From a virus (lineage: Duplodnaviria; Heunggongvirae; Uroviricota; Caudoviricetes), in IMG/VR virus record IMGVR_UViG_2684622620_000010, positions 1-16,330 of that record: a DNA stretch of 16,330 nt; one strand, written 5' to 3'. Position 1 is the stretch's first letter. Every line of letters begins with the position of its first letter. Positions 4,844-5,691 of the stretch are shown here, one piece after another. A model generated the notes under the pieces. It did no database searches and was not told the DNA's origin. It saw only the letters and a program-made list of their open reading frames with translations. Both the position numbers and the translations under genes were made by a program.

Positions 4844-5131
4844 CACTTTCATCAACAACGCTTACCCAGCGGCAGTTGTTCAGAAACACGTTCTGACAGC
4901 CGGAAAGACGGCATCAAATTTTGCGCGTCGGCGCCAACACGATGACAGAGGGAAAGACTTCGCCGGCATATGGCACATGTGTCGAAGCGGTCTGGATGGA
5001 AGCGGAGCCTTAACGCGTTGTCTCCATAGCAGGTAGCCGGAATGTGCAAGCCACAGCCAGGTATGAGCGATTGATTCACCATCAAGGCGATACGGTGTGA
5101 CCACCAGGGAAGAGTCCTGGCTACAACACGA

Positions 5132-5317
5132 GAGCGCACTTCATCGACTCAACTTTGAGCTTTGTCGTTAAATTTTGAAATGGCGGAGTGCGCTCCCGGT
5201 TGTGGTGAACAGGTGTTTAACGGGAACTCCCTGCCCGTTACCCGGTTCGATTCCGGGCGCCCATCATCAATTTGCTGTGTTTAGTCTTTGCCCAGTCCGC
5301 ACGATGGGCCATTTTTT
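5132..5317 (+). other. Highly structured non-coding segment in the early leader (candidate cis-acting RNA or sRNA)
   Basis: 9-bp long-range inverted repeat GAGCGCACT (5132-5140) / AGTGCGCTC (5187-5195). Two directly adjacent hairpins follow (5218-5240: 7-bp stem, 9-nt loop; 5241-5257: CCCGG-TTCGATT-CCGGG, a tRNA T-arm-like motif). A terminator-like hairpin GCCCA-N10-TGGGC followed by CATTTTTT lies at 5290-5317. Confidence 0.3.
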
Positions 5318-5691
5318 CACACAGCCAGGTTTTATCGCTGTGCCTGAGTCCCCAACAGGAGAGGCCAAACCCGCAGCGTGACACCAGGGAAAGACCGGAG
5401 GAAGTACCACGCCTGACCAGCGTTGACCATGAGCCTGACCAGCTCAAAACAGGAAAGACCAGCCCCGTACGGTCGTGATGGAAACATAACGACGCCGGAA
5501 ACGTAACCGGCACCCTTTAGATAGCAAAAGACCCGCACAAGGCGGGCCAGTTACCCCGAACGGCGACCAAACCATTCGGATTTATCACAAGTGACCAAAC
5601 TTGTGATGAGGAAAGACCAACGACACTGACGCTATGGAAGCTGATCAATATTCGCTGATCGGTCCCGAGTATACATCACCAAGGAGTCGCT

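Follow-up and report, generated by a model that had tools for sequence, protein, structure and literature searches.

The put RNAs of phages HK022 and HK639 are cis-acting antiterminator RNAs that bind the zinc-binding domain of the RNA polymerase β' subunit (PMC9378689). In Shiga toxin (Stx) phages, termination at tR' downstream of the antiterminated promoter PR' gives the small RNA (sRNA) StxS (PMC7547250), and the Qin prophage carries an sRNA with its terminator, DicF, inside a repressor-controlled early-left operon. We describe here a locus that recalls each of these systems in part, namely the gap between the cI-like repressor gene and the early operon (positions 4844–5691) of a lambdoid prophage remnant situated in the tRNA-Ser(CGA)/mtfA/tRNA-Asn/yeeJ locus of E. 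coli; the whole stretch analyzed, 16,330 nucleotides (nt) of the IMG/VR record IMGVR_UViG_2684622620_000010, is referred to as the window. The gap is a modular noncoding RNA cassette, neither a passive leader nor a set of decayed genes, and it contains a conserved structured RNA of about 160 nt which we call element A. In our preferred reading, to which we assign a probability of about 0.4, element A would be a cis determinant of readthrough into the early operon, in a cassette that would also deliver a terminator-made sRNA.

Like the put RNAs, element A is a structured RNA that closely follows PL in a lambdoid phage whose corresponding slot has no N-type antiterminator (PMC9378689); it is present as a single PL-side copy (the HK639 record annotates a putL-like RNA only) and its sequence is very strongly conserved. 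The put RNAs, however, comprise about 70 nt, with two stem-loops meeting at a single junction, whereas in element A two candidate pseudoknots accompany the four covarying helices; the element is also found in mid-operon in phage P1 and in morons of epsilon15-like phages. With the N/nut system of lambda the locus shares the genomic slot and the logical need (a promoter and a terminator followed by the recombination genes, xis and int), but it has neither an N-like open reading frame (ORF) nor a boxA: no GCTCTTW, the CGCTCTTA-like signature, occurs in 4844–5691, and the boxB-sized hairpin GCCGGAAAGACGGC (4899–4912) has no boxA beside it. The likeness to Qin lies in an sRNA with its terminator inside the early-left operon and in the segment 5123–5213, which is homologous to the module preceding dicF; on the other hand, the terminal sRNA of the window is RprA-like, and Qin has the small ORFs ydfABC in place of element A. 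A ‘dicF-like region’ is annotated in P1 as well. RprA is a core-genome, Hfq-dependent sRNA, whereas the window copy would be made from a phage early promoter within a longer RNA; the 5' half of RprA, which carries the rpoS-pairing region, does not align to the window. As for StxS, the common point is a promoter-proximal phage terminator, giving a regulatory sRNA when it is used and the operon when it is read through (PMC7547250); StxS, however, depends on a late promoter and on Q, whereas the promoter of the window is early, has no known protein antiterminator and heads a transcript without sequence relationship to StxS.

A preliminary description, made from the sequence of the window alone, had taken the gap for an untranslated leader of about 850 bp with no credible ORF before 5692 and no N-like antiterminator gene. 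The coding part of this claim is borne out. The gap contains short overlapping ORFs only, the ten largest of which have no significant match in Pfam or PHROGs (best E-value 0.017), and RefSeq annotates no gene in this region of strain RM9387. In the ‘Stenotrophomonas’ phage BUCT709, a 72% identical relative, the gap ORFs switch frame, the alignment with the window showing indels of 1, 1, 2, 3, 1, 2, and 17 nt across the gap. Searches with Pfam and PHROG profiles revealed neither an N-like ORF nor a decayed known gene in the gap or in the whole operon, and with no conserved frame and no family match the earlier suggestion of decayed genes falls. Two ORFs were considered individually and rejected: the 19-residue MAHVSKRSGWKRSLNALSP (4970–5029), of which neither start nor frame is conserved, and a minus-strand ORF of 95 residues annotated in BUCT709, whose frame is not conserved; the conservation of both is explained by covarying RNA pairs. 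At the nucleotide level, the gap is kept at 95–99.9% identity in 481 of 5426 complete E. coli genomes, and both its halves fold better than shuffled controls (z = −2.1 and −2.4). What does not stand is the notion of one uninterrupted leader, since an intrinsic terminator lies in the middle of the stretch (hairpin 5290–5309, T-run 5312–5317).

The segment 4963–5135 matches unannotated gaps of unrelated phages (SPN1S, Tyrion, PAT1, SopranoGao, and SJ46), and a scan of IMG/VR with its invariant 19-mer GGTAGCCGGAATGTGCAAG recovered at least 120 contigs, with about 100 distinct variants among the matches listed. The structure was tested on an alignment of 33 representatives sharing less than 93% identity. 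In this alignment 97.4% of the cells are standard pairs and 11 pairs are changed on both sides; the covariation score is reached by none of 500 shuffles, and sliding the partners by 1–3 columns leaves only 25–47% of the cells paired. The same structural picture emerges from 57 further matches, in an alignment that was fitted to the model and is thus biased towards the proposed structure. Concerning the candidate pseudoknots, the second (CACC/GGUG) shows a C–G to A–U double change in three sequences; the first (GCAC/GUGC) is invariant and therefore a candidate only. RNAalifold proposed a long-range consensus pairing, GCACAU/AUGUGC, instead of helix H1; because it is the local hairpin that carries the covariation, this pairing was kept merely as a candidate pseudoknot. 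A sigma-54 promoter based on TGGCAC-N5 in H1 was also discarded, the −12 GC not being conserved and the hairpin covarying. Several members have CTG or ATA in place of the ATG inside H1, and no conserved ORF explains the pattern. Altogether about 60 positions are invariant across very different phages, the loops and junctions being very strongly conserved, and the invariant loops suggest contact with a conserved host machine.

A covariance model of element A (R1) gives 140 bits (E = 1e-40) for the window at 4963–5140; it detects every element A tested at 111–173 bits, with 57 matches at E < 1e-30 in 57 sources. The window copy possesses H1, P2, H3, and H5 together with the invariant GGUAGCCGGAAUGUGCAAG. 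Rfam 15 holds no family at element A, even at E ≤ 10, in the window, in HK022 and HK639 or in 12 related loci, where the scans returned only tRNAs, ALIL, C4/isrK, int-alpA, and STnc100, all of them outside the element. A full-text literature search for its sequence found nothing, and a P1 transcriptome preprint does not mention it. Being absent from Rfam 15, unannotated in the records examined and not retrieved by the full-text search, element A appears to be an undescribed RNA family.

At least 1832 of the 5426 complete E. coli genomes contain one variant of element A or relatives of it that blastn detects, 551 of the places being on plasmids, and the annotation underneath is ‘none’ for every match listed. 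Carriers include phage P1, the Stx2a- and Stx2c-converting phages, cdtI, mEp390, and epsilon15-like phages. About a dozen genera of Enterobacterales are represented, and among GTDB species representatives the exact 19-mer is confined to this order, bar two doubtful bins of metagenome-assembled genomes. We surveyed the context of 127 loci. An S24/helix-turn-helix (HTH) cI-like repressor gene, from one of two unrelated repressor families, lies upstream in the same orientation in 53 of them, the gene ending at a median of 140–166 nt from the element, and about 12 loci have other cI-like genes upstream (a small HTH repressor of the window type, or a cI gene with one intervening ORF). Another 36 loci are epsilon15-like, element A lying between terminase and portal genes on the opposite strand, and about 12 are P1-like, 81 nt upstream of a DnaB-like gene. 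The order cro(−), cI(+), element A, early genes and finally xis and int is common to cdtI, mEp390, Stx2a_WGPS2, and BUCT709, with no N gene annotated in the stretches examined; the first genes downstream of element A have no N-like PHROG match. In Stx2c-converting phages element A lies at matching coordinates. A strong promoter (11/12 and 10/12 matches) is found 45–50 nt upstream of element A in cdtI and mEp390, and in the window the element begins 113 nt downstream of the predicted start site.

In P1 (NC_005856) an unannotated element A occupies 71023–71217 between trnI and ban, within the ban operon under C1 control, at a distance of 2.3 kb from Pban with its C1 operator; the unit formed by tRNA-Ile, 14 nt, element A and a DnaB-like gene recurs in P1-like phage-plasmids. 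In the epsilon15 record the annotation places sites for a repressor, for IHF and, putatively, for RNase III just upstream of a truncated element A; a terminator and a co-oriented gene come after it. Early repressor-controlled transcription thus also holds in P1 and epsilon15, and the common denominator of the contexts is an early, repressor-controlled transcript with element A near an RNA 5' end. One IMG/VR contig (L021) carries two tandem co-oriented copies (3980–4153 and 4787–4958), about 800 nt apart.

The promoter of the window, TTGACC-17-TAAAGT, had been noted before as PL-like; it is a real promoter-like site and the sole sigma-70-like match in 3900–6200. Between its hexamers sits the 19-bp palindrome TTACAAATACAAATTGTAA (4822–4840), and since this closely resembles TTACAAATCATAACTGTAA (4210–4228) and TTACAAATTATATTTGCAA (4229–4247) in the cro/cI intergenic gap, the promoter is plausibly under repressor control, like PL; such a likeness is expected if one repressor controls both OL and OR. 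No second promoter was found after the terminator; CGTTGACCAT recurs at 5421 but without a −10 element. The terminator at 5290–5317 is the only intrinsic one that a terminator scan places on the + strand between the promoter and int. BUCT709 has a strong terminator at the same place (seven G–C pairs, U7) and no promoter-like site from there to its first genes. With a lenient detector, a co-oriented terminator-like site was found within 1 kb after element A in 89 of 98 distinct loci (median distance 219 nt), against 67 of 98 in an antisense control.

The modules between element A and the terminator have recognizable relatives. In the first of them ACAACACGAGAGCGCACU pairs with AGUGCGCUCCCGGUUGUGG (11 of 12 core bases complementary) to form a long stem around GUCGUUAAAUUUU, and 5118–5213 aligns to positions 1649165–1649262 of K-12, about 130–220 nt upstream of dicF in the Qin dicB operon; BUCT709 aligns there too. 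As at the dicF locus, a conserved precursor module precedes an sRNA inside a repressor-controlled early operon, whereas DicF itself has no Rfam match in the window and the terminal sRNA aligns to RprA. Indeed, 5266–5320 shares 45 of the last 56 positions of K-12 rprA (80% identity), terminator loop included; the shared stretch consists of GCUGUGU(G/U)UAGUCUUUGCCC and the loop CACGAUGGGC, and the single-stranded GCUGUGUGUAGUCUUUG is conserved along with the intrinsic terminator. The Rfam RprA model (RF00034) reaches 37.4 bits here (E = 0.017), below its gathering score of 70 because the 5' half of RprA does not match. The earlier idea that the leader may encode an sRNA thus gains substance from this module. 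BUCT709 retains AUUGCUGUGUGUAGUCUU, with a different and stronger terminator hairpin that shows compensatory stem changes. Within 1 kb downstream of element A, 77 of the 98 distinct loci have the DicF-like UUGGCGG, and 26 have the RprA-like GCUGUGUxUAG downstream; the modules recur in varying order. The module in the DicF slot and the copy of the RprA 3' domain tie the cassette to known prophage and core-genome sRNA biology.

Several observations accompany these homologies. The untranslated ydfC–dicF region of K-12 Qin shows the same stem modules as the phage arrays (ACAAC..GUCGUUAAAU..GUUGUGG, then a unit of the GUUGUGG..CAAC type), so that the DicF precursor belongs to a far larger family of modular RNAs. 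The 3' domain of the core-genome rprA gene (GCUGUGUGUAGUCUUUGCCC plus terminator) also ends many phage arrays of noncoding RNA (26 of 98 loci), a hint of exchange between phage cassettes and the rprA gene. In other loci (L003, L005, L020, and others) long stems of the form CAACGAUGAGAGCAUU ... AGUGCUCUCAGCGUUGUGG downstream of element A enclose T-arm-like hairpins (GGUUCGAUUCC, GGUUCAAUUCC) and directly adjoin real tRNA-Arg(UCU) genes, some of their 3' arms being the boxA-like GUGCUCUUU; these stems may be mimics of a tRNA ‘top half’ or processing signals. The piece 5185–5265 of the window was rejected as a tRNA gene, ARAGORN being negative (it finds only tRNA-Ser and tRNA-Asn, both elsewhere) and the tRNA-Sec model of Rfam giving 19.3 bits for a threshold of 47 bits.

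We propose that derepression of the PL-like promoter would yield an RNA comprising, in order, the short hairpins, element A, the DicF-locus-like stem, the tRNA-like piece and the RprA 3' copy that ends at the terminator. Because the only + strand terminator lies at 5290–5317, this transcript would have two fates. If it stops at 5318, a precursor of about 470 nt would result, from which an RprA-like and probably Hfq-type sRNA could be released, as DicF is from the Qin dicB operon; if it reads through, across a further untranslated tail of 370 nt, the exonuclease, gam, xis, and int would be expressed. An RNA left untranslated over such a length is a natural target of Rho; some factor probably promotes elongation. 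Element A is the best candidate for the cis determinant of readthrough and would, acting on RNA polymerase, protect leader and operon from intrinsic and/or Rho-dependent termination; the logic would be that of the put RNA of HK022, with an unrelated sequence and fold.

Readthrough control by RNA is plausible because about half of the 127 loci combine a cI-type gene and element A with the absence of an N-like gene downstream, and element A is the obvious candidate since at least four unrelated repressor backgrounds have it in the N/put slot, co-oriented and upstream of a terminator. Antitermination by element A is what this position suggests, and that the element promotes readthrough of the early operon is a tentative proposal, at less than even odds. 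Doubtful, and in our view rather unlikely in its full extent, is the wider claim that it represents a cis-acting processive antiterminator (or anti-Rho) RNA of a new class, one not related to put, that would replace N in many lambdoid phages, including Stx2a and Stx2c phages, and would also guard the early transcripts of P1-like and epsilon15-like phages.

Several facts weigh against a role of element A in readthrough. The enrichment of terminators over the antisense control is real but modest, and the terminator of the window is weak (a 5-bp stem and an interrupted U-run), so that some readthrough needs no factor. In P1, a terminator, three tRNA genes and tciABC precede element A, with ban following at a distance of only about 100 nt, and the element cannot serve a promoter-proximal terminator there; the epsilon15-like unit is a short self-contained moron that faces the terminase gene. 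Each phage record listed has one copy of element A, which would leave the PR operon unprotected. The modules shuffle between loci like independent genes, with real tRNA genes among them, as fits processed trans-acting RNAs. Finally, there is no homology to a known antiterminator RNA. We modeled put on 17 sequences (HK022 putL and putR, HK639 putL and 14 further ones from IMG/VR), the structure of this model, R2, following the description of put by cryo-electron microscopy (PMC9378689). With filters off, R1 finds no match at HK022 putL/putR or HK639 putL in targets of 0.7–2.5 kb, and R2 none in 4963–5135 of the window; nor does R2 match element A in 35 other loci.

The facts about P1, epsilon15, the single copy, the shuffling and the tRNA genes fit about equally well with element A and its neighbours being independent RNA genes, arranged like a tRNA array, cut by host RNases (P, E, and III) and acting in trans early in lytic growth; such RNAs might serve as decoys or sponges that occupy a conserved host factor, or as anti-defence RNAs resembling tRNAs, and ordinary partial readthrough would then express the early genes. 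Both order and combination of the modules vary, and scattered among them are T-arm-like hairpins as well as genuine tRNA genes (Arg-UCU, Ile-CAU, Asn, Thr). Element A starts 14 nt past the 3' end of trnI in P1 and its relatives, L021 has its copies in tandem, the RNase III site annotated in epsilon15 adjoins the element, and in Qin a module array of this kind is processed to give DicF; moreover, the invariant loops imply a conserved host binding partner that is not necessarily RNA polymerase. Against this stands the placement of element A at the 5' end of the PL transcript in about half of the loci, always co-oriented with a long operon, and its mutual exclusion with put; no processing signals were identified, and no match to a known trans-acting RNA family was obtained. 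We regard a trans-acting role as possible, though we would sooner expect it to fail than to hold.

A weaker third option is that element A works as a stabilizer or processing platform of the 5'-untranslated region, against RNase E decay that depends on the 5' end, or sets messenger half-life and translation; the end to be protected would arise at the start of transcription in PL-type loci and by tRNA processing in P1. The element does lie close to a predicted RNA 5' end in every context, 45–113 nt from the start site in lambdoid phages, about 50 nt from the RNA 5' end in epsilon15-like units and 14 nt after trnI in P1-like phages, where it is also 81 to about 100 nt upstream of ban. A simple stabilizer, however, would not need some 60 invariant positions across very different phages, and in lambdoid loci hundreds of nt and a terminator separate element A from the first gene, which makes this option improbable.

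The preliminary description had also brought in HK022 as a model for an RNA-based mechanism. The analogy stands insofar as a conserved structured RNA fills the N slot and a terminator lies between it and the first gene; as homology it does not, given that R1 and R2 miss each other's families and the architectures differ, and membership of element A in the put family is not supported. The Rfam scan proposed at that time gave the sub-threshold RprA match and nothing at element A. Rfam has no put family and returns nothing at HK022 putL/putR or at the annotated putL-like RNA of HK639, and this check was therefore unable to decide the question of put; a full-text search for put-like RNAs brought nothing further. 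Element A and put are mutually exclusive in the loci examined, no element A occurring in 790 kb around 80 put loci and no put in 345 kb around 35 element A loci. It is very unlikely that element A is a divergent, expanded put RNA in which H1 corresponds to stem I, and P2 with the GCGG/CGGAAUG internal loop to stem II: the slot and the mutual exclusion would agree, and by eye one may recognize an ACGGCG...UGCGUCG stem whose third pair is G–U, a helix bordered by GCGG and CGG(C)AAUG, and a GGAAGAG loop like that of stem II in HK639 put, but these resemblances are short and not shown to exceed chance, size and number of helices differ, and neither model detects the other family even on small targets with filters off. 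Least credible of all is a gap made of decayed coding sequence or concealing a small N-like protein, for although the tail has SD-like (Shine-Dalgarno-like) GGAAAGACC motifs without start codons, two of which carry ATGs in BUCT709 (giving ORFs of 37 and 47 residues), one start-less frame reads RRKRNRH and a 19-codon ORF exists at 4970–5029, there are no family matches or conserved frames, the 19-codon ORF has no conserved start and owes its conservation to covarying RNA pairs, and the arginine-rich stretch is missing from BUCT709.

The features of the locus are collected in Table 1. The gene order follows the layout of the lambda immunity region, as judged from the RefSeq annotation of strain RM9387 and PHROG matches, and the term ‘early leftward operon’ used before is right in the lambda sense, the lambdoid geometry being correct, though the operon runs on the + strand in window coordinates. 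Two identical insertion sequences of the IS3 family (55–1268 and 15075–16288), each with a 108-residue OrfA, a 296-residue OrfB and an ALIL frameshift pseudoknot, and with ORF sizes equal to those of IS629 in Stx2a_WGPS2, flank the prophage remnant, tRNA-Ser, mtfA, tRNA-Asn and the 5' part of yeeJ in a geometry that resembles a composite transposon; the left copy cuts short the PR-side replication genes and the right copy ends a yeeJ-like ORF of 953 residues.

Table 1. Positions of the genes, promoter and RNA modules of the prophage early region in window coordinates.
Feature	Position	Strand	Remarks
O-like replication gene	2087–3187	−	
Small unknown gene			Between O-like and CII/YdaT-like genes
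CII/YdaT-like	3418–3894	−	
Cro-like	3953–4210	−	
cI-like HTH repressor, 142 residues	4267–4695	+	PHROG transcriptional regulator/repressor families, best E = 2.7e-22; RefSeq: helix-turn-helix protein; co-oriented with early operon
PL-like promoter TTGACC-17-TAAAGT	4815–4843	+	Encloses operator-like palindrome 4822–4840
Noncoding gap	4844–5691		Between cI-like gene and gene of 106-residue protein
5' leader hairpins	4850–4962	+	Common to BUCT709; AACAAC..GUUGUU (~4855–4880), GCCGGAAAGACGGC (4899–4912), GCGCGUCGGCGC (4923–4934); from sequence, BUCT709 alignment and fold
Element A, conserved structured RNA, ~160 nt	4963–5122	+	Covariance model and covariation
Element A, helix H1	4964–4971/4977–4984		Loop GGCAC
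Element A, helix P2	4987–4994/5030–5037		
Element A, helix H3	5071–5074/5082–5085		
Element A, helix H5	5104–5108/5116–5120		
Element A, candidate pseudoknots	4973–4976/5044–5047 and 5077–5080/5094–5097		
Element A, invariant 19-mer	5032–5050		GGTAGCCGGAATGTGCAAG
DicF-locus-like stem module	5123–5213	+	Arms 5129–5140/5187–5198; motif GUCGUUAAAUUUU; end GGUUGUGG
tRNA-like piece	5185–5265	+	T-arm-like hairpin CCCGGUUCGAUUCCGGG at 5242–5258; absent or diverged in BUCT709
RprA-3'-domain-like sRNA module with intrinsic terminator	5266–5320	+	Hairpin 5290–5309, U-run 5312–5317
Lineage-specific noncoding tail	5321–5691	+	Very conserved core ~5340–5445; hairpins; GGAAAGAC at 5388, 5452, 5610
Terminator-like hairpin GGCCCGCCUUGUGCGGGUC, then UUUUGC	5530–5548	−	Terminator scan; conserved in BUCT709
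Unknown protein, 106 residues, first coding sequence of operon	5692–6012	+	Not arginine-rich; phrog_2479, E = 2e-51; RefSeq-annotated
RecE-like exonuclease	6043–8265	+	
Mu-Gam-like	8262–8831	+	
Small unknown gene			Between Mu-Gam-like and Xis
Xis	9223–9438	+	
Int	9438–10466	+	Followed by tRNA-Ser

The tail that follows the terminator has a narrower distribution. Relatives found by blastn against phage records are BUCT708/709 only, and anchoring the search on the 106-residue protein yielded only relatives at least 93% identical; the indels with respect to BUCT709 are not multiples of three. The SD-like motif GGAAAGAC occurs eight times in the window, where 0.45 would be expected: three copies (6033, 9214, and 3388 on the minus strand) serve real genes as ribosome-binding sites, and five copies without a start codon lie in the gap (4902, 4951, 5388, 5452, and 5610), which could be SD-like decoys, decayed starts of mini-ORFs or protein-binding sites. 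The segment 5599–5624 repeats 6022–6047 with ATG changed to ACG. Seed pairing of the RprA-like module with the GGAAAGAC motifs was set aside as weak, comprising only 6–7 bp plus a mismatch and being lost in BUCT709. On the minus strand, 5457–5548 contains three terminator-like hairpins with U-tails, conserved in BUCT709, of which GGCCCGCCTTGTGCGGGTC followed by TTTTGC (5548 to 5530) is the strongest; no minus-strand promoter was found for them, and their role might be to halt antisense transcripts that come in from the operon, or to form the 3' end of an antisense sRNA. HK639 is a further case of phage leaders being rich in noncoding RNAs, with a late leader that has an Rfam STnc100 match and a tRNA between the Q and holin genes, and an ‘M3-like RNA’ annotated after cII (44780–44985, 37910–37969).

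The locus is of a known kind, a lambdoid early operon without N that has an RNA leader and an operon-embedded sRNA, with a substantial chance that element A is a new functional class. About one third of complete E. coli genomes, as well as the textbook phage P1 and Shiga toxin phages, carry a strongly conserved RNA that is supported by covariation and is yet missing from Rfam and from annotation. If element A does control readthrough, this would explain how the genes for recombination, excision and integration are expressed in many lambdoid phages lacking N, and it would be a second, independent solution to antitermination by RNA only; as a new antiterminator class, it would make such antitermination common rather than a curiosity of HK022. 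If it acts in trans instead, it would be a new early phage noncoding RNA aimed at a conserved host factor. Either way, the early leaders of phages are reservoirs of sRNA modules, and the one found here in the DicF slot, copied from the RprA 3' domain, could rewire the Hfq networks of the host upon induction.

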